Of a DNA stretch of 37,438 nucleotides, positions 279 through 37,438 are shown in pieces. The notes beneath the pieces are model-generated. The model did no database searches. It was not told where the DNA came from and worked only from the letters and a program-made list of their open reading frames with translations. Every line of letters starts with the position of its first letter. Position 1 is the stretch's first letter. The translations under genes and the position numbers were made by a program. The DNA comes from a virus: UHGV virus genome UHGV-0041833. One strand, given 5' to 3'.

Positions 279-1190
279 ATGACCATACTGGTACCCCCAA
301 GCAAATTTTGCATTTACTCAGATGATTCTAGGGCTGGGACATTGAACTTCATCAACTCGATTGAATCGATTGGAGTAAAAAATAAAGGTCGAGTTATAGT
401 TGATTTGTCCAAGGTAAAATTTGCCTCAGCTGCGGCATCGGTACTGTTCTTTGCCATAGTAAATAGAGCTCAATTTTTAACCCGGGACCCTAATTTTATA
501 CGTTTTAAATGGCCTAAAAAGGATGATAACCCATCTGGGCATAGATGGATCGTTGGTACTGGACTTGCTCGTGCTTTGCTTGCTGGCACAGAAGAGAAAC
601 TGAATGCACTTACGAGGGAGGAACGATACTTTCAGTCAGCTGTCGAACCTTACGAGCATATTGTTGAAACAGTACTCATGCTGCAGAAAAGTGCTCTGCT
701 TAATAATGAACAGTTAGGCTTACTGCTGACAGCGATTAGTGAAGCTTTGCTCAATGTTTCTCATCATGCGTATGAAGATGAGGGGTTCGAGTCAGATATT
801 CAGCTTCTCAAAGGTAAACGATGGTGGCAGTGCGCTTGGTTCAATCGTGATGAAAATAAAGTCGTTTTTATCGTTTGTGACCTTGGATTGGGGATTTATA
901 GAAGTTTCGTGCCTAATGGTGATGGTCATAGCATTCAAAACGAAGTATCTTCTGTGGAAAGAGCTATGTTAGTAGGGGAATCCCGCTTTGTTGGTTCCGG
1001 ACGGGGAAATGGCTCTGAAGATATCAAGAGACCTATTGGGGCAGGTTGTGAGGATAATGAGACACTTCTGATACTAACAGGAAGGGCTCGTTATAGCTAT
1101 AATTCTAATGACAGTAGTCCTCGATGTGAGAAGCTAGCTGAGTACATACCGGGTACTTTACTACAATGGTCGCTGGTTCCCAGGAGATGA
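279..1190 (+). CDS. GHKL (histidine-kinase/anti-sigma-factor kinase-like) ATPase-domain protein with STAS-like N-terminal segment; cargo gene 1
   Basis: 303-aa ORF; C-terminal half has N-box-like EALLNVSHHA, G1-like CDLGLGI, G2-like GSGRGNG; N-terminal VIVDLSKVKFASAAAS resembles STAS motif; AT-rich versus phage core; first of three tightly spaced genes. Confidence 0.5.
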   Translation: MTILVPPSKFCIYSDDSRAGTLNFINSIESIGVKNKGRVIVDLSKVKFASAAASVLFFAIVNRAQFLTRDPNFIRFKWPKKDDNPSGHRWIVGTGLARALLAGTEEKLNALTREERYFQSAVEPYEHIVETVLMLQKSALLNNEQLGLLLTAISEALLNVSHHAYEDEGFESDIQLLKGKRWWQCAWFNRDENKVVFIVCDLGLGIYRSFVPNGDGHSIQNEVSSVERAMLVGESRFVGSGRGNGSEDIKRPIGAGCEDNETLLILTGRARYSYNSNDSSPRCEKLAEYIPGTLLQWSLVPRR

Positions 1191-1194
1191 TTTT

Positions 1195-1521
1195 ATGAGA
1201 AATATCGTCATAGCGAAGGAGTTCTCCAGAACACCTTTCGGACGTTACACAACGGATAGCCCACACAGTGCGGAAAGATTTCGTAGAGAGTTTTTGGTGC
1301 CTGCGCTGAAGGGTACTGAACAGGAGATTGTGGTTGATTTTCGCGGTATAGCACTGGGTGTTGGTTCCTCTTTCTTAGAAGAGGCGTTTGGAGGTCTCAT
1401 CCGTAAGGAAGGGATACCTAAAGCCAACGTTAAAGCACGTTTGATTATAAAAAGTGATGTTCCGTTCTACAAAGAACAGATTGATAAATTTATTGATTTA
1501 GCACAACCAGAAAGAGTATAA
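1195..1521 (+). CDS. STAS-like (DUF4325-type) small protein; cargo gene 2
   Basis: 108-aa ORF starting 4 nt after previous stop with AGGAGA SD 7 nt upstream; VVDFRGIALGVGSSFLEEAFGGL resembles STAS-like partner-switching domains. Confidence 0.5.
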   Translation: MRNIVIAKEFSRTPFGRYTTDSPHSAERFRREFLVPALKGTEQEIVVDFRGIALGVGSSFLEEAFGGLIRKEGIPKANVKARLIIKSDVPFYKEQIDKFIDLAQPERV

Positions 1522-1531
1522 GAGGCGATAG

Positions 1532-2149
1532 TTGATCAGTACGGAACCAATGTCATTAGTAGCACAAATAGGACAGTATTCGTGGTGTATCACAGTAGTT
1601 AGCGTCTGCTTAGTTTTCATTGGATGGCGAGTTGCGTACAATAATTCTGTAAAACTGGCGACACGTTCTGAATCGAAATCAATTATTGATGCTATTTCAA
1701 AGTTAGTTATTGAAATTTCTGATATTTCTTCTAACTATTGGCTCAGTCAGACAACTCAACCTAAAATTAGAGCATCAAAGCATCGATTGTTAAGGTTGCA
1801 AAAGGATAGAACAAAGGCTTCTGTTTCATACTTGTTAACTATCTTGGCTAAAGCTCAACAAGTTTCCAAACTGATTTGCATTTTGGAAAGCAGAGGACTG
1901 TATATACCTGACGAGGTGTTCTCATCTGTACTAGAGAAAGCAACTCTGGATTGTGAGGTCGCTCACAAGCTTTCAGATGCCGATCGCCCGGTTAAAGCAC
2001 AAGAAGTAATTGATGCTTGTATGGGAGTTATCGAAGCGTTACATACTTCTTTTCAAAGGTACCACCCTCCCAAAAAGGATCGTACCTTTATGCAAAGGTT
2101 AAAAATTTGGTTTCAAACAGTAGACGATTGGCATAATGACTTAAAATAA
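1532..2149 (+). CDS. Single-pass membrane protein with helical cytoplasmic domain; cargo gene 3
   Basis: 205-aa ORF; TTG start with AGAGG SD 6 nt upstream (alternative ATG at 1550); one predicted TM helix SWCITVVSVCLVFIGW; 3' end overlaps the int stop codon by 9 nt (convergent). Confidence 0.5.
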   Translation: MISTEPMSLVAQIGQYSWCITVVSVCLVFIGWRVAYNNSVKLATRSESKSIIDAISKLVIEISDISSNYWLSQTTQPKIRASKHRLLRLQKDRTKASVSYLLTILAKAQQVSKLICILESRGLYIPDEVFSSVLEKATLDCEVAHKLSDADRPVKAQEVIDACMGVIEALHTSFQRYHPPKKDRTFMQRLKIWFQTVDDWHNDLK

Positions 2150-3313
2150 AGCCTTTTTATCCTTGATACTTGCCCTCCCATCATACTCTTTCAAGTATTG
2201 TCCATAGTGCCTGAATAACATTTCAGGCCCTTTATGGCCCATTTGAGCCGCAAGCCAAAACAGGTTTGCTCCCCGGCTGATATGGCTGGTGGCGAATGTA
2301 TGCCTGGTTTGATATGGGTTTCTGTAACGAATACCTGCTTTTCGCAATGTTGGCACCCATGCTTTTTTCCTAATTGCATCAGCACTTGCCCAGGGTTTAT
2401 TGGTCTTTGGATCTTCAAAGACAGTAGCATCCTTCATGAATGTAAATGGCTTCTGGTTTATCAACGCCAACATTGCTTCTTCAGTCAGTTCAACTTTACG
2501 GGTACCGGCTTTTGTCTTTGTTCCTTTGATAACTCCGACAACACTTGCGCTCTGAACATGGGCTGTTTTTCCAACAAAGTCGATATCATGCCATCGTAGG
2601 GCACATAATTCAGAACTACGCAGGCCTGTATGTATGGCGAACCGGAACAGATTTTCCCATTGTTTGTTTCCGGCTGCTGCTAGTAATGCATCAACTTCTG
2701 CTGGTGATAGCGGATCAACCACATAGCTGCTTTCTGCTTCTGACTTATCACTTTGGTAGCGCGAAGCTGTTACTAACGATACGGGGTTAATTTGAAGTAC
2801 CCCATCGGTCACGGCTTCATCAAGTGCTGACCGTAGGAAAGATAACTGGTTGCGAATGGTTTTTAAGGTTGTTTTCTGGCTTTGAATCCACGCTTTCAGG
2901 GTTGCTGGTGTTAATTCACTTGCAGGGCAAATGTGAAGTGAGGCTAACGCACTACGGCATTTTTTATAGCCACCAATCGTAGAGGGTGAAAGTTTTCTTG
3001 TTTCGCAGATTTCAAGATATTCGTCCAGGTACATCTTTACCGTTTTGCTTGCAGCAGCATTACCAAAAATTTTCAAACGAGCAGAACGGGGAAAATATTC
3101 TGCATAAATGAATGTTCCCCTTTCGATCTTATTATGGATTTCGCCGAGTGTACGCTCGGCGTATTTAATGTTCTTTGGTGTTACTTCCAGATTGGAAAGC
3201 GGCTCACGACATCTAACTCCTTTGTAGGTGAAAGTTATATTGATCGTTTCTCCCTGGTGGTGTTTCCTGATTGTTACGCCGCGCGGTAGTTTGAGCAGTT
3301 TTGTCTGGCCCAT
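2141..3313 (-). CDS. int: Tyrosine integrase (phage integrase family with N-terminal arm-binding domain)
   Basis: 390 aa; ATG at 3313 with GAGG SD; C-terminal catalytic region with R...H..R...Y-type motifs (HTFATSHISRGANL, FRHYGQY); overlapped at its 5' end by the xis ORF. Confidence 0.9.
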   Translation of the reverse strand: MGQTKLLKLPRGVTIRKHHQGETINITFTYKGVRCREPLSNLEVTPKNIKYAERTLGEIHNKIERGTFIYAEYFPRSARLKIFGNAAASKTVKMYLDEYLEICETRKLSPSTIGGYKKCRSALASLHICPASELTPATLKAWIQSQKTTLKTIRNQLSFLRSALDEAVTDGVLQINPVSLVTASRYQSDKSEAESSYVVDPLSPAEVDALLAAAGNKQWENLFRFAIHTGLRSSELCALRWHDIDFVGKTAHVQSASVVGVIKGTKTKAGTRKVELTEEAMLALINQKPFTFMKDATVFEDPKTNKPWASADAIRKKAWVPTLRKAGIRYRNPYQTRHTFATSHISRGANLFWLAAQMGHKGPEMLFRHYGQYLKEYDGRASIKDKKALF

Positions 3314-6401: not shown

Positions 6402-6869
6402 TTTGCTGCTCCTCATCATATCGACCCTGCAAGGTCGGTTGGTTTCTCCACAAAACAGAGAAGAACACCTGCGGTGGCAGCCGCCCGGGTGGATTGGGTT
6501 ATGAGCCCGTCGTCCGGTGATGCTCTTCTCTGTTTTGTAAAAAGAGCGGTACCAGCCGGAAGCAAGGGTACAAGCTGGTACCGCCAGGACTACACACAGC
6601 ATAAAGTTGTGGTGCCGGGTGCCTCCCGGTGCCTGGCGAAGGTTGCACACCAGGCGGGTGGGTATCCACAGAAGGTCGACTGTCAGCCTCAACCTTAACC
6701 CGCGTGCGCTGAGCCGCATTCACCACAACGCTAAGGATTCTCTCTGGTTGAAAATACTTAGCTGTTATGTGCCTGCTTTTAGCCACATCAGGCGAGGTGG
6801 GCCTGGTTATTCCCCAACAACAAGGATTCGGCTAATCTGGATGACTCTGTTCTTAGAGGGGATAATTAA
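6402..6869. other. GC-rich, hairpin-dense non-coding region (candidate early-left promoter/leader or structured RNA)
   Basis: About 470 bp with no convincing ORF on either strand, multiple stable stem-loops, and operator-like half-site GGTACAAG identical to the OR1 right half. Confidence 0.3.
6546..6584. repeat. 11-bp perfect inverted repeat gcggtaccagc / gctggtaccgc with 17-nt spacer
   Basis: Direct reading; the spacer contains GGTACAAG; each arm contains palindromic GGTACC. Confidence 0.6.
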
Positions 6870-7584: not shown

Positions 7585-8259
7585 TTAGGCTTTGATTTTG
7601 TATCTTCTTGGTTTTCCTGAGAAAATCACAGTACCAATTATAGAGCAATTACCGTTGATCTTAATGTAAGGCTCAGGCCAGTTTGGGTTTAACGCTTTGA
7701 GATAACGCTGTGTCCCATCTTCTATCAACCTTTTGAAGGTGGTTTCACCTGTATCGTGCATCAATGCAATAACGTCGTCACCGTGGCAGGCAGGTACTTC
7801 AGGATCGACAAAAATCATGTCTCCCGGGCGGTACTCATCAATCATTGAATCACCTATCACCCGCAAGATATAAGTCATTTCCCCACAGGGTACAGGGCAG
7901 GGATACGTTTCTGCTGTGCTCAAATCAACCTCAGAATATCCAACTTCTTTCCATGCTCCGGCCTGTACCCATGATATGACAGGGACTAATGTGATTTGTT
8001 TATTAGTGATTGAAACATCAGGTTTTTTTGTGATGTTCGTTGTCTGGTGTTCTTGATCGAGCCATCCGACAGGCAGGTCGAAACATTTTTCGATGTGTCG
8101 TGCCATGCTGTCACCGATATTTTTAGTAGCACCATCTCCCATAAACCTGCTGGTCTGGGTTGGCTCGCGATCAATCATAGTGGCAAAGGAAGAATTCCCG
8201 CCAACACCATCTCTCAGTTTTCTGGCGTTAGACCGCCGGATGTCATGGATTGTTTTCAT
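7585..8259 (-). CDS. cI: CI-type repressor (N-terminal HTH, C-terminal S24 LexA-like autopeptidase domain)
   Basis: 224 aa; Ala-Gly cleavage-site-like WVQAGAW, Ser nucleophile motif GDSM, downstream Lys; divergent from cro across operator region. Confidence 0.85.
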   Translation of the reverse strand: MKTIHDIRRSNARKLRDGVGGNSSFATMIDREPTQTSRFMGDGATKNIGDSMARHIEKCFDLPVGWLDQEHQTTNITKKPDVSITNKQITLVPVISWVQAGAWKEVGYSEVDLSTAETYPCPVPCGEMTYILRVIGDSMIDEYRPGDMIFVDPEVPACHGDDVIALMHDTGETTFKRLIEDGTQRYLKALNPNWPEPYIKINGNCSIIGTVIFSGKPRRYKIKA

Positions 8260-15093: not shown

Positions 15094-15429
15094 ATGATTA
15101 ATGCCGTTGAGTACAGATTACCGTTAGGAAATATCTCTCCAGAGAATCTTGACGCGTTGTCAGAACTTATCGTTAAGCATTCCGATAAATTTAATAACTA
15201 TGTACTTAGTTCTATTTCTGATGATGATATTCGATATTCTTACGATTACTACAATTTTGAAATCACAGAGATAGATGAATATGGGTTTCACTTTATAGCA
15301 CCATATAGCTATTATGAAGGATGCGTTGACAATAACTTCTCAGGAGAGGTTGAAGGTTATGCAGAATACGAAATTATTGATAATGAATTAGTCTTCTCTC
15401 TTGAGGAACTACCTTGGGATGTAAAATAA
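15094..15429 (+). CDS. Small highly acidic, Tyr-rich protein of unknown function (moron between Q and holin)
   Basis: 111 aa; strong AAGGAGG SD; AT-rich; no signal peptide or TM segment; own terminator. Confidence 0.6.
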   Translation: MINAVEYRLPLGNISPENLDALSELIVKHSDKFNNYVLSSISDDDIRYSYDYYNFEITEIDEYGFHFIAPYSYYEGCVDNNFSGEVEGYAEYEIIDNELVFSLEELPWDVK

Positions 15430-15886: not shown

Positions 15887-16349
15887 TCCTCAGCGTAAAG
15901 CTTTCCTCGATATGGTGGCCTGGTCAGAAGGAACGGATAATGGGCTACAACCGACACGTAATCATGGTTATGACGTCATTGTGGGCGGAGAAATATTCAC
16001 TGATTACTCCGATCACCCTCGCAGACTTGTCACGCTAAACCCAAAACTCAAATCAACGGCTGCCGGGCGCTACCAGCTTCTTTCCCGCTGGTGGGATGCA
16101 TACCGTAAACAGCTTGGACTGAAAGACTTCTCTCCAAAAAGCCAGGATGCTGTTGCACTGCAGCAGATTAAAGAGCGTGGTGCTTTACCGATGATTGATC
16201 GCGGTGATATTCGTCAGGCTATCGACCGTTGCAGCAATATCTGGGCTTCACTGCCGGGAGCTGGTTATGGTCAGTTTGAGCATAAGGCTGACAGCCTGAT
16301 TGCAAAATTCAAAGAAGCCGGCGGAACGGTCAAAGAGATTCAGGTATGA
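15873..16349 (+). CDS. R: Endolysin, lambda R-type lytic transglycosylase
   Basis: 158 aa; near-identical over long stretches to lambda R as recalled ([17 protein letters not shown] ... [121 protein letters not shown]). Confidence 0.9.
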
Positions 16350-16783
16350 GCAGAGTAACGGTGATTATATCCGCTCTGGTTATCTGCATCATCGTCTGCT
16401 TGTCATGGGCTGTTGATAATTACCGTGATGACGCCATCGTCTACAAAGTACAGCGCGATAAAGCCACATCCATCATCGCTGATATGCAGAAGCGTCAACG
16501 TAATGTAGCTGAACTCGATGCCAGATATACAAAGGAGCTTGCTGATGCTAATGCGACTATCGAAAGTCTTCGTGCTGATGTTTCTGCTGGGCATAAGCGC
16601 CTGCAAGTCGCCGCCACCTGTACAAAGTCAACGACCGGAGCCAGCGGCATGGGCGATGGAGAAAGCCCTAGACTTACAGCAGATGCTGAACTCCATTATT
16701 ACCGTCTCCGAAGTGGAATCGACAAGATAACCTCACAGGTCAATTACTTGCAGGAGTATATCAGGACGCAATGTCCCAACTAA
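16346..16783 (+). CDS. Rz: Rz i-spanin
   Basis: 145 aa; N-terminus [22 protein letters not shown] as in lambda Rz; ATGA overlap with R. Confidence 0.85.
16545..16730 (+). CDS. Rz1: Rz1 o-spanin lipoprotein embedded in the +1 frame of Rz
   Basis: 61 aa; AAGGAG SD 8 nt upstream; lipobox LLGISAC followed by a Pro-rich segment. Confidence 0.7.
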
Positions 16784-16880
16784 TCACATTTTGAGGATAT
16801 TTAACGTCTATGCTTTAATGATTTTATTCATTGTTTTATAATCGCGAAGAATAATGATGAACTTGGCAAAGGATATGATT

Positions 16881-17105
16881 ATGCGTATTAAACCTCAAGA
16901 TTTTAAGTTTGATGTGTTGACTGTTGCTGGTTACGCTAACCCTAAAGCTAAAACACATTTCGCACCTTCTGCTTCTGGATTTAATTTTAAATGGGAGTGG
17001 GAAGGGAAAATTTATGAGCTTCATATCGAGCAAGAAAAATTACAGTACCCTGATTTTATTCTTGAACGACTTTTTGATGCCGCAATTGAGATGGCTAAAA
17101 AATGA
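16881..17105 (+). CDS. Small hypothetical protein (AT-rich cargo gene after the lysis cassette)
   Basis: 74 aa from ATG 16881 (AAGGA SD; track ORF begins at 16854); no TM or signal peptide; AT-rich. Confidence 0.45.
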   Translation: MRIKPQDFKFDVLTVAGYANPKAKTHFAPSASGFNFKWEWEGKIYELHIEQEKLQYPDFILERLFDAAIEMAKK

Positions 17106-17145
17106 CAAAAATCACCGGATGGGTTTTTTGTTTATAGATATTCAC

Positions 17146-17197
17146 ACATAGCCCTTGCATCTAGAACAGAAAATCTTGTCATGGCGCGGGGCTATGT
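17146..17197. repeat. 9-bp inverted repeat acatagccc / gggctatgt with 34-nt spacer between the convergent cargo genes
   Basis: Direct reading; possible bidirectional terminator or protein-binding site. Confidence 0.3.
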
Positions 17198-17211
17198 TAG
17201 CAAAAATTTAT

Positions 17212-17652
17212 TTAATAGGATATTTTGTTTGCAGATTTAAGCTCTTTAAGAGTAGCGTCAAGTATATGTAAAAATAGAGAAGTGTCGCCATACTCATAAT
17301 GTGGCTCGGATTTGTATTCTCTAATATAAATAAATCCACCTTTGGATAAAAATAAATCAATCAGCTCGTTGTTATTTTCATCGGTTGGGTCAATGGCAGC
17401 AAACTTCAATACAGGAGCTTCATCAATGACTAGCAGTGTTTCTTTGAAAATAAGTTCTAGTTCATATGTTGAAAGTTTGAGGGTTAACCTATTTTTTTTA
17501 TCTTTATTGAAAATTATTGTGTCGCCAAGAAAATCGTATTCAGAGCTTGAGTCAATAATGTTATTCTTAAGTTTGAGAGATATTGCATCTAAAGCCTTTT
17601 TATGCTCTGCGCACTTAACAACTTTATGAACATCTAAACTGGGGATACTCAT
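17212..17652 (-). CDS. Hypothetical soluble protein, reverse-oriented AT-rich cargo gene
   Basis: 146 aa from ATG 17652 with AGGTGG SD 7 nt upstream (track ORF begins at TTG 17715); opposite strand to all flanking phage genes. Confidence 0.55.
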   Translation of the reverse strand: MSIPSLDVHKVVKCAEHKKALDAISLKLKNNIIDSSSEYDFLGDTIIFNKDKKNRLTLKLSTYELELIFKETLLVIDEAPVLKFAAIDPTDENNNELIDLFLSKGGFIYIREYKSEPHYEYGDTSLFLHILDATLKELKSANKISY

Positions 17653-17754
17653 AATACAACCACCTATGTAAGAACTAAAGAGCATTGAGTCTATGTGATT
17701 AATATCAAGACCCAATTAAATTTTTTAAATTATTAGAGTTAGATCCCACTTTAA

Positions 17755-18105
17755 ATGCCCCCACGAACCCCAAAAGCCTGCCGCGTTCGCGGCTGCCGCC
17801 AAACCACCACTGATCCGTCAGGCTATTGTGAAAGCCACAAAAGCGAAGGCTGGAAACAATACAAGCCAGGACAATCCCGTCACCAGCGCGGCTACGGTTC
17901 GAAGTGGGATGTTATCCGCGCGCGCGTGCTGAAGCGTGACAAAGGCCTGTGTCAGTTGTGCCTGCATGTCGGTGTGGTGCGTGAGGCGAAAACCGTTGAC
18001 CACATCATCCCTAAAGCGCATGGCGGCACTGATGCAGACTGCAATCTGCAGAGCCTGTGCTGGCCGTGTCATAAGGCGAAGACGGCCCGTGAACGACTGA
18101 AGTGA
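17755..18105 (+). CDS. HNH endonuclease (terminase-associated)
   Basis: 116 aa; Cys-rich HNH motifs (CRVRGC...C, DHIIPKAHGGTD, CWPCH); immediately upstream of the terminase genes. Confidence 0.85.
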   Translation: MPPRTPKACRVRGCRQTTTDPSGYCESHKSEGWKQYKPGQSRHQRGYGSKWDVIRARVLKRDKGLCQLCLHVGVVREAKTVDHIIPKAHGGTDADCNLQSLCWPCHKAKTARERLK

Positions 18106-18230
18106 TAATAATTCTCAACTTTCTGAGGGGAGGGGCGGGTCAAATCCCTGTGACCTGACGTCTTCCGGACTGCCCGCCCCATCGTTTTTTTATACCCGCG
18201 AAAAATGAAATTTAACCAGGAGTGCCGCAT
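18106..18230. other. Candidate cos/packaging region with G-rich 8-bp inverted repeat ggggcggg / cccgcccc and T-run
   Basis: IR at 18132..18139 and 18173..18180 followed by TTTTTTT; located between HNH and terS. Confidence 0.3.
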
Positions 18231-35927: not shown

Positions 35928-36529
35928 TGGATAAAGCAATATTAAATAGTGGACTTGTTGCTACAAAGGCAGGGGATATTACCGTTTATAACTATGATGG
36001 TGAAACTCGGGAATATATTTCCACTTCAAGTGAATATCTTGCCGTTGGTGTTGGTATCCCGGCATATTCCTGTCTGGATGCACCAGGTATACATAAGGCG
36101 GGTTATGCTATCTGTCGTTCTGTGAATTTAAATTCATGGGAATATGTGCCAGACCATCGCGGTGAAATCGTCTATAACACCGAAACGGGAGAATCAAAAC
36201 AAATCACAGCACCGGGTGATTACCCCGAAAATACAACCACTATTGCCCCATTAACGCCATACGATAAATGGGATGGTGAGAAATGGGTGACCGATACTGA
36301 GGCACAGCATAGCGCCGCAGTAGACGCGGCAGAAGCACAGCGTCAGTCACTGATTGATGCTGCAATGGCTTCCATCGGTCTGATTCAGCTGAAATTACAG
36401 GCCGGACGGAAGCTGATGCAGGCAGAAACAACCCGGCTTAACGCTGTGCTGGATTACATTGACGCGGTGACGGCAACAAATACCAGCACAGCGCCGGATG
36501 TCATCTGGCCTGAACTGCCGGAGGCGTAG
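35927..36529 (+). CDS. Tail fibre assembly protein (Tfa, forward orientation)
   Basis: 200 aa; ATAATG overlap with fibre gene; C-terminal Tfa signature (LDYIDAV...TAPDVIWPELPEA). Confidence 0.75.
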   Translation: MDKAILNSGLVATKAGDITVYNYDGETREYISTSSEYLAVGVGIPAYSCLDAPGIHKAGYAICRSVNLNSWEYVPDHRGEIVYNTETGESKQITAPGDYPENTTTIAPLTPYDKWDGEKWVTDTEAQHSAAVDAAEAQRQSLIDAAMASIGLIQLKLQAGRKLMQAETTRLNAVLDYIDAVTATNTSTAPDVIWPELPEA

Positions 36530-36944
36530 GCCATTCAATATCTGGCGCACAGGAAGTATCGACCAGTTCCAGTGCGTCCAGATAATCCAGCCACGAATTA
36601 TATTGCGCCAGTTCCTCGCCTTTCAGACGACCAATAGCAGCTTTGCCAGGCCACTGATGGGTATTGATGTAGGTATTGACTTCTGAAACCAAAGATATTT
36701 TTTTCATTTCAGCCGTCAACACCTCATCCTCTTTTGAAGGGGGTGGGGAATTAATCCATACTGGCCGTCCTGAACTGTCAGCGCCAATTTCTTTCCCTTC
36801 TGGATGCAGACCAAGAAATTGCTCATATGTTTCTCTGGTAATTTCAATAACATCATCAGGAAGCGTTCCCGCATCCTCATATTCTGGAAACAATTCTTGC
36901 AGATAAAAACTTTTACTTCCGGGTGAAAAGAATACTGAGTTCAT
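36501..36944 (-). CDS. Tail fibre assembly protein (Tfa', inverted orientation)
   Basis: 147 aa; C-terminal WLDYLDALELVDTSCAPDIEWPTPP; convergent with the forward tfa. Confidence 0.75.
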   Translation of the reverse strand: MNSVFFSPGSKSFYLQELFPEYEDAGTLPDDVIEITRETYEQFLGLHPEGKEIGADSSGRPVWINSPPPSKEDEVLTAEMKKISLVSEVNTYINTHQWPGKAAIGRLKGEELAQYNSWLDYLDALELVDTSCAPDIEWPTPPAVQAR

Positions 36945-36946
36945 TA

Positions 36947-37438
36947 TTACCGTCCAATGATTAACGCTGAGACGCTGGTATCTGAAGGAAAGGCTGCATT
37001 CAGTGGTTTGTCGACTTTGAACACAATCGTATTATTCCCCCTGACAGCGGCAAAAGAACAAACCGCCGTCGCGTATGAACCTGTAATATTACTGGATACA
37101 CCACCATAAGCTGTTGTTGATACCAGAGGGATAACGCCCAGCACCTTATTAGGAAATACAAAGGGCAATGTGGCTGTGGCAATATAAGACTTATTAGAAC
37201 CTGTGATGGCATAAGCATTATCAGTCATTCCATTCATCGCCACTGGGCCGCTTATACTTACAGTAACCATCTGAATGATTAGCCCGTCAGGTTGACGAAT
37301 CACAAAATTTCCATTGCCACCAGTAACCGTCCAGAAAGACATATCAGGGATTTGGTTTTCCCCGTTGCCCACATTCCGTTTTGCCGCTTCTCCCAAACCA
37401 ACGTTTATGAAAATGCAGAAATAACGAGCAAATGGCAT
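36947..37438 (-). CDS. Alternative tail-fibre variable part (Sv') read from the right crossover site
   Basis: Minus-strand ORF; codons for GLGE at 37399..37388 coincide with the right crossover site and are in the same frame as GLGE in the forward fibre; expressed only after inversion. Confidence 0.65.
   Translation of the reverse strand: MPFARYFCIFINVGLGEAAKRNVGNGENQIPDMSFWTVTGGNGNFVIRQPDGLIIQMVTVSISGPVAMNGMTDNAYAITGSNKSYIATATLPFVFPNKVLGVIPLVSTTAYGGVSSNITGSYATAVCSFAAVRGNNTIVFKVDKPLNAAFPSDTSVSALIIGR
37388..37413. other. Right crossover site of invertible segment (inverted copy of the left site)
   Basis: Plus strand ttctcccaaacc aa cgtttatgaaaa; 13 nt (ggtttgggagaag) form a perfect inverted repeat with 35475..35487. 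Confidence 0.7.

Follow-up and report, generated by a model that had tools for sequence, protein, structure and literature searches.

The 971-bp insert between the lysis genes and the packaging genes of this Escherichia coli prophage very probably comprises two independent morons, namely a 74-aa gene on the plus strand (ORF A) and a 146-aa gene on the minus strand (ORF B). It was observed here how the insert is built, that its genes are independent, that the slot holding them is variable, that purifying selection acts on both, and that ORF B is often inactivated. The whole of the explanation favoured below, in which two unrelated, self-contained accessory genes occupy a variable slot and have the expression and roles suggested for them, is considered rather likely. 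The insert itself is an ordinary kind of feature, consisting of small accessory genes in a known variable slot.

The window (the whole stretch of DNA analysed, 37,438 nucleotides) is an SfI/e14-like lambdoid prophage with HK97-type head genes and Mu-like tail genes, present in E. coli ATCC 11775, UTI89 and PA45B-type strains. Over 16300-18200 it matches prophages of E. coli PA45B, SF-166 and others at 100% identity and that of ATCC 11775 at 99.9%; for the latter, RefSeq gives the gene order Q antiterminator, 111-aa gene, holin, endolysin, Rz, 74-aa gene, 146-aa gene (other strand), HNH endonuclease, P27-type TerS and TerL. The insert extends from the stop codon of Rz, a spanin gene, to the start codon of the HNH gene, and is thus bounded by Rz on one side and by the HNH/terminase genes on the other. 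The nearest sequenced phage, Shigella phage SfI, matches the window at the Rz and HNH flanks only, and no DNA similarity to SfI was found across the 971 bp of the insert. The features of the insert, including ORF A, ORF B and a 9-bp inverted repeat, are as follows.

16814..16842, plus strand: promoter-like site of ORF A (TTTAAT, 17 nt, TATAAT; -10 hexamer at 16837-16842), score 9/12 with a perfect -10
16868-16873, plus strand: ribosome-binding site of ORF A, AAAGGA, conserved in relatives
16881..17105, plus strand: ORF A, 74 aa; open reading frame and RefSeq CDS WP_001220676 ('hypothetical protein') with identical limits
17104..17132, plus strand: weak terminator-like hairpin with a T run directly past the ORF A stop, -7.6 kcal/mol
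17146..17197, minus strand: 9-bp inverted repeat, the base of a terminator-like hairpin for ORF B, -19.4 kcal/mol, 14 nt past the ORF B stop
17212..17652, minus strand: ORF B, 146 aa; open reading frame and RefSeq CDS WP_000026993 ('hypothetical protein') with identical limits
17485..17492, minus strand: A8 run on the coding strand (T8 on the plus strand), a frameshift hotspot at about codon 53 of ORF B
17653..17754, minus strand: spacer between ORF B and HNH with the ribosome-binding site and weak promoter-like sites, e.g. TTTAAA, 17 nt, GATATT (17729 down to 17701), score 8/12
17660-17665, minus strand: ribosome-binding site of ORF B, AGGTGG (reverse complement of these positions), conserved in relatives with 61-64% protein identity

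The moron definition of Juhala and Hendrix (quoted in PMC2629481) was used as the test of membership. The G+C content of the insert is 0.31-0.35 (16800-17800), against 0.48 in the lysis genes, 0.56 in the HNH/terminase genes and 0.48-0.57 over the flanks as a whole, so that the base composition departs from that of the flanks and the preliminary description of the pair as AT-rich holds. The insert is also present in some prophages and absent from close relatives. Of about 1110 complete E. coli genomes with at least 80% of this HNH-TerS block, 102 were found to contain the full insert and 106 any part of it, and about 9% of the E. coli prophages with the block have ORF A. Six relatives whose HNH-TerS genes are 93-98% identical to those of the window showed five different contents in the slot.

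KN13-4 and HYM1 (as in SfI): a DUF6979 gene and a 67-aa gene, both forward
GF130: a 97-aa gene and a 76-aa gene, both forward
Strain 136: iss, reverse-oriented
MEI4B-1023: an 83-aa gene, reverse-oriented
ECOR29: nothing between the lysis genes and HNH

The junction of the lysis and packaging modules had been regarded as an insertion hotspot, and the comparison with related prophages agrees with this: the locus is variable, and neither gene is fixed at this position. In E. coli strain 136 (NZ_CP028629; L024), the increased-serum-survival gene iss lies reverse-oriented at 1782-2075 between Rz and HNH, beside an HNH-TerS block 95% identical to that of the window. Another slot occupant, a 206-aa reverse gene at 2211-2831 (minus strand) of L030, follows a relative of ORF A; it has no Pfam match, and its weak PADLOC match to Cas6 (E 8e-4) is probably due to chance.

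ORF B had also been described as the only reverse gene of the late region. This is true from the Q antiterminator to the tail-fibre genes, but not beyond, as reverse ORFs are also present at 36501-36944 and 36947-37438 (both minus strand), past the tail-fibre genes at the end of the window. In ATCC 11775 their equivalents are a gene for tail-fibre assembly and a hypothetical gene, beyond which lies a truncated recombinase gene; this looks like the remnant of an invertible tail-fibre segment.

By the evidence of their sequences, ORF A and ORF B are both real coding genes. The 74-aa gene with its own ribosome-binding site was described correctly, the ORF, the RefSeq limits and the AAAGGA motif being in agreement, and homologues of ORF A use the same start methionine. 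Full-length members of the family have 72-74 aa and share 50-78% identity, with one further match at 33%. The C-terminal helix PDLILERLFEAAIEMAKK is nearly invariant across the family, third codon positions vary freely along the gene, and dN/dS against relatives, with the window copy as reference, is 0.05-0.11, indicative of purifying selection. The protein is soluble, with a pI of 6.7 and without a transmembrane segment; its top 19-residue hydropathy of 0.44 indicates no signal peptide, and its AlphaFold2 model (pLDDT 68) consists of a predicted helix, three strands and a helix. Upstream, TATAAT was found at the same place in five of eight diverged relatives, with variable flanks. Downstream, relatives in Enterobacter, Citrobacter, Pantoea and other hosts have a canonical terminator, GCCGCC-N4-GGCGG-T6 (-13.6 to -14.6 kcal/mol), to which the hairpin of the window is homologous in position but degenerate and weaker.

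ORF B likewise has concordant ORF and RefSeq limits and its own ribosome-binding site, as had been claimed, and its homologues use the same start methionine. Relatives are 143-146 aa long and align end to end down to 30% identity, their G+C content is 30-35% in every host phage, and dN/dS is 0.22-0.40, again indicative of purifying selection. The family is tiny (four clusters among 5.8 billion proteins, seven representatives among 1.8 billion), its members coming from 13 IMG/VR contigs, one Logan contig and E. coli ARL09/232. The protein is soluble, with a pI of 5.4, of the alpha/beta type and without a transmembrane segment; its top 19-residue hydropathy of 1.12 indicates no signal peptide. 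No invariant residues of a catalytic type (His, Cys, Ser) were found across the family alignment. The AlphaFold2 model (pLDDT 43) is unusable.

The claim that ORF B needs its own promoter was upheld, the gene being reverse-oriented. A block, TTGATATT, and the ribosome-binding site upstream of ORF B are kept in relatives at 61-64% protein identity, and in two relatives (L016 and L017) a perfect TATAAT precedes the start codon by 35-40 nt. The 8/12 site of the window came from a looser scan; a stricter scan reported no promoter, the spacer between ORF B and HNH included. Several contigs contain a conserved ORF of 85-95 aa (MNLTRGHMRLTVLDDDPGRKINL...) on the HNH strand between the ORF B relative and HNH, for example at 7622-7909 (minus strand) of L010 and 6609-6866 (minus strand) of L003; this ORF is absent from the window.

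The inverted repeat between the two genes was confirmed as a perfect 9-bp repeat, ACATAGCCC (17146-17154) and GGGCTATGT (17189-17197), with a 34-nt spacer. Perfect 9-mer repeats are about as frequent here as chance predicts for such AT-rich DNA (2 were observed; 500 dinucleotide shuffles gave a mean of 0.97). Repeats with G or C at 5 or more of the 9 positions appeared in only 1.8% of the shuffles. The hairpin that it closes at the 3' end of ORF B (z -2.4) has a large loop and is not followed by a T run. Every relative of ORF B was observed to have a non-homologous G+C-rich hairpin of its own 9-20 nt after the stop (-17.6 to -21.1 kcal/mol), which in L017 is a canonical terminator with a U run. 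Because the relatives each have their own hairpin at the equivalent place, the repeat appears to be an element of ORF B, and the idea of an element shared by the two genes was not borne out.

Do the two genes constitute one module? The preliminary description had proposed a two-gene defence, anti-defence or exclusion module, and a toxin-antitoxin-like pair around a shared inverted repeat is a variant of the same reading. The genes are adjacent and equally AT-rich, and both are present together in all 102 carrier E. coli genomes, as a module would be. However, they were found together only in copies 89-100% identical to the window, that is, in one lineage, and no relative more diverged than that has both genes. 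In at least 12 further prophage contexts (from Enterobacter asburiae, Citrobacter freundii, Pantoea latae and Leclercia prophages and from metagenome contigs) a relative of ORF A was found and ORF B was not; the gene that follows differs each time and is often reverse-oriented. Conversely, relatives of ORF B at 35-64% identity occur without ORF A, and the loci with ORF B but no ORF A are L003, L009-L014, L016-L018 and L020. A 146-aa gene beside the ORF A relative of L040 was considered as a homologue of ORF B and rejected, being unrelated to it. Profile-profile comparison detected no similarity between the two families; the genes are convergent, each with its own terminator-like hairpin; PADLOC gave no credible match; and strains of the UTI89 type have an intact ORF A beside a frameshifted ORF B. 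The module reading is largely refuted by the distribution of the genes and is very unlikely. The other part of the description, that the genes look foreign and self-contained, agrees with the data, as each is AT-rich and has a ribosome-binding site, a promoter-like site and a hairpin. From the separate distributions and the lack of profile similarity, ORF A is placed with the lysis genes and ORF B with HNH, at opposite sides of the slot, the two having been brought together in one lineage.

For ORF A, the chief alternative to a lysogenic-conversion gene is a late-expressed accessory of the phage lytic cycle, such as a modulator of lysis timing or a host-takeover factor. In every context seen, ORF A relatives are on the late-operon (forward) strand, between the lysis genes and the small terminase gene, and in most contexts directly after the spanin genes. 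This constancy of position and orientation, together with the very low dN/dS and the invariant C-terminal helix, would fit a late-expressed phage function too and counts against a moron expressed in the lysogen. A simple operon member, however, would have no need of the conserved -10 box and the putative terminator of its own, and the gene is missing from most related prophages, as the figure of about 9% given above indicates. Its placement is constant across differing holin, endolysin and terminase types, so that it is tied to no one type of holin, endolysin, spanin or terminase. The transmembrane segment or lipobox typical of lysis proteins is also lacking; ORF A is free of hydrophobic segments, matches nothing in Pfam, PHROG or NCBIfam, and has only its position after the lysis genes in common with them. 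A late role of this kind is rather doubtful.

For ORF B, the corresponding alternative is a functional tie to the HNH/terminase packaging machinery, or a counter-defence role, in place of a benefit to the host. ORF B is directly upstream of, and divergent from, an HNH gene or its remnant in 14 of 14 family contexts, always reverse-oriented and within about 370 nt, and this adjacency persists where HNH is 36-66% and TerL 25-63% identical. The adjacency may, however, be plain linkage: L003, L009 and L012 keep only an HNH remnant beside ORF B, which suggests recombination inside HNH. Furthermore, most HNH-terminase prophages lack ORF B, two scans of representative genomes, one per species, gave no relative of it, the gene is antisense to the late transcript that expresses HNH, and its loss by frameshift leaves otherwise identical prophages in place. 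A tie to packaging, or a counter-defence role, is accordingly judged quite unlikely.

Variation among close copies of the insert bears on whether the genes matter at all. Over the 971 bp, UTI89 and L008 differ from the window at two positions only, namely T8 to T7 at 17485..17492 and T to G at 17124, the latter falling in the ORF A hairpin; ORF B is not annotated where the run is A7 (UTI89). This 970-bp form with the A7 frameshift was found in 16 of 38 evenly sampled carrier genomes, a sample in which about 40% of carriers are thus frameshifted. P0002 shows an in-frame loss of 3 bp at the same run. In IMGVR_UViG_3300029562_000227 (L015/L048), a copy with about 97% identity to the window, a nonsense codon interrupts ORF A, the -10 box is TATTCT and ORF B has the A7 frameshift; pN of ORF A in L015 is about equal to pS. 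In E. coli APEC E18006 (NZ_CP126942; L021), an IS1B element abuts the final 187 bp of the insert. An IS1-associated deletion there runs from the early region up to the 5' part of ORF B; the missing DNA begins with yfdQ and takes in the lysis genes, ORF A and most of ORF B. Because ORF B is frameshifted or otherwise lost in these carriers, it is dispensable for maintenance of the prophage. Any benefit from the insert genes is likewise dispensable, given the ORF B frameshift in the sample and the decay of both genes in L015.

These observations might be taken to mean that the insert is non-functional, hitch-hiking cargo decaying in this lineage. The frequency of the A8-to-A7 frameshift, the state of L015, the removal of most of the region in APEC E18006 and the degenerate ORF A terminator of the window are all as such a reading predicts. 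Against it stand the purifying selection and the kept length seen family-wide for both genes, and the intact state of both frames in the window, and it is regarded as improbable, slightly more so than the packaging tie. Two selected, independent accessory genes remain the preferred interpretation.

Neither protein had been recognised in the preliminary description, and family, defence and PDB-profile searches gave the same result. Scans of ORF A, ORF B and all members of their families against Pfam, PHROGs, NCBIfam and PADLOC yielded nothing significant. In PADLOC-DB 2.0, ORF A had no match and ORF B matched only PDC-M24A, weakly (E 0.006-0.016 over 31 residues); as a defence hit this is best read as chance. 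Profile searches of PDB sequences with both proteins returned only matches at the chance level, tblastn of both against sequenced phages and plasmids returned none, an Rfam scan of 16500-18000 found nothing, and a literature search for WP_001220676 and WP_000026993 found nothing. Remote-homology search and structure prediction gave no functional lead: a structure search with the ORF A model retrieved only generic folds or uncharacterised viral proteins, and the ORF B model had too low a pLDDT for use. Generic two-layer alpha/beta sandwich folds (type III secretion chaperones, ribosome hibernation factors) are listed among the nearest known systems.

What known systems resemble the two genes? 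The bor gene of lambda and iss are, like ORF B, single reverse-oriented genes between Rz and the packaging genes, and the iss gene of E. coli strain 136 described above occupies exactly the slot of ORF B. Lysogens of lambda express bor. Both Bor and Iss are lipoproteins, about 97 aa long, and carry a signal peptide. By contrast, ORF B encodes a soluble protein of 146 aa without a hydrophobic segment. Neither ORF A nor ORF B has a hydrophobic signal peptide with a lipobox (19-residue hydropathy maxima as given above), and the product of ORF B is cytoplasmic and not a lipoprotein. The DUF6979 protein (gp63 of SfI) shares with ORF A and ORF B the Rz-to-HNH slot, in SfI and in E. coli KN13-4 and HYM1; it differs from ORF B in being forward, and it belongs to a different family from both.

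Two further phage proteins can be compared by description. One of these, gp15 of HK97, is a membrane protein. The other, Tab of Pseudomonas phage JBD26, is a small moron of a late operon without a recognisable family that acts as defence, and has 83 residues encoded in the forward direction between terS and terL (PMC10884400). Tab and gp15 are like ORF A and ORF B in being small, of no recognisable family, located among late genes and present in some relatives only, and both act by binding and not by catalysis (PMC10884400). Tab differs from the present genes in its length of 83 residues, its terS-terL site and its forward orientation.

Taken together, the data suggest the following picture. 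The ORF A family would travel with the lysis end of the slot, as a forward gene with a conserved -10 box, a ribosome-binding site and a rho-independent terminator, and the ORF B family with the HNH end, as a reverse gene that diverges from HNH and has a ribosome-binding site, a promoter-like region and a terminator hairpin of its own. Each gene may be transcribed in the lysogen from its own weak sigma-70-type promoter; for ORF B, which had been described as probably expressed in the lysogen, the chances of this are about even on the available sequence. On induction, converging Q-antiterminated late transcription would dampen expression of ORF B. Both products are predicted to be small and soluble, to lack enzymatic activity and to act through binding to another protein. 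The target of ORF A would probably be a host component, because the phage partners vary while the sequence is tightly held. ORF B would most likely be a host-benefit or exclusion factor expressed in the lysogen, a reading suggested by the position of iss and by transcription against the Q-antiterminated late transcript. Points against this picture are the score of 8/12 for the candidate promoter of ORF B, the -7.6 kcal/mol of the ORF A terminator, and the large loop of the ORF B hairpin without a T run.

An anti-phage function for either gene is doubtful. A more specific proposal, and an unlikely one, is that ORF B is a new single-protein prophage exclusion or anti-phage factor, expressed from its own promoter in the lysogen and lowered by converging late transcription on induction, which may hit the packaging of incoming phages with HNH and terminase genes, and that ORF A is a conserved small binder of a host protein spread through Enterobacterales prophages. 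The HNH endonuclease gene is the one to which ORF B is always linked.

Elsewhere in the window, a second AT-rich gene (33% G+C) lies at 15094-15429 (plus strand) between the Q antiterminator and holin genes; its 111-aa product is very acidic (pI 4.05) and has phrog_13663 (function unknown) as its sole match. Profile-profile comparison found no relation between this protein and ORF B. At the integrase end of the prophage, three genes occupy 279-2149 (plus strand) and adjoin the integrase gene at 2141-3313 (minus strand). The product of the first (303 aa) matches the histidine-kinase-like ATPase domain PF13581 weakly and below threshold (E 9e-5), that of the second (108 aa) is a STAS-like DUF4325 protein (E 6e-14), and that of the third (199 aa) has no family. 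The 303-aa and 108-aa products resemble, in their predicted domains, a partner-switching pair of anti-sigma kinase and antagonist; a PADLOC scan of the three proteins gave no match.

In these prophages the junction from Rz to the HNH/terminase genes acts as a slot for cargo, in which bor/iss is one occupant among many, and joint working of neighbouring cargo genes is not to be assumed. The intact A8 form of ORF B in the window and the frameshifted A7 form in UTI89 provide a natural pair of alleles for comparison. If either protein has a phenotype, it would represent a new small family among the prophage accessory functions of extra-intestinal pathogenic E. coli (UTI89, PA45B, APEC).
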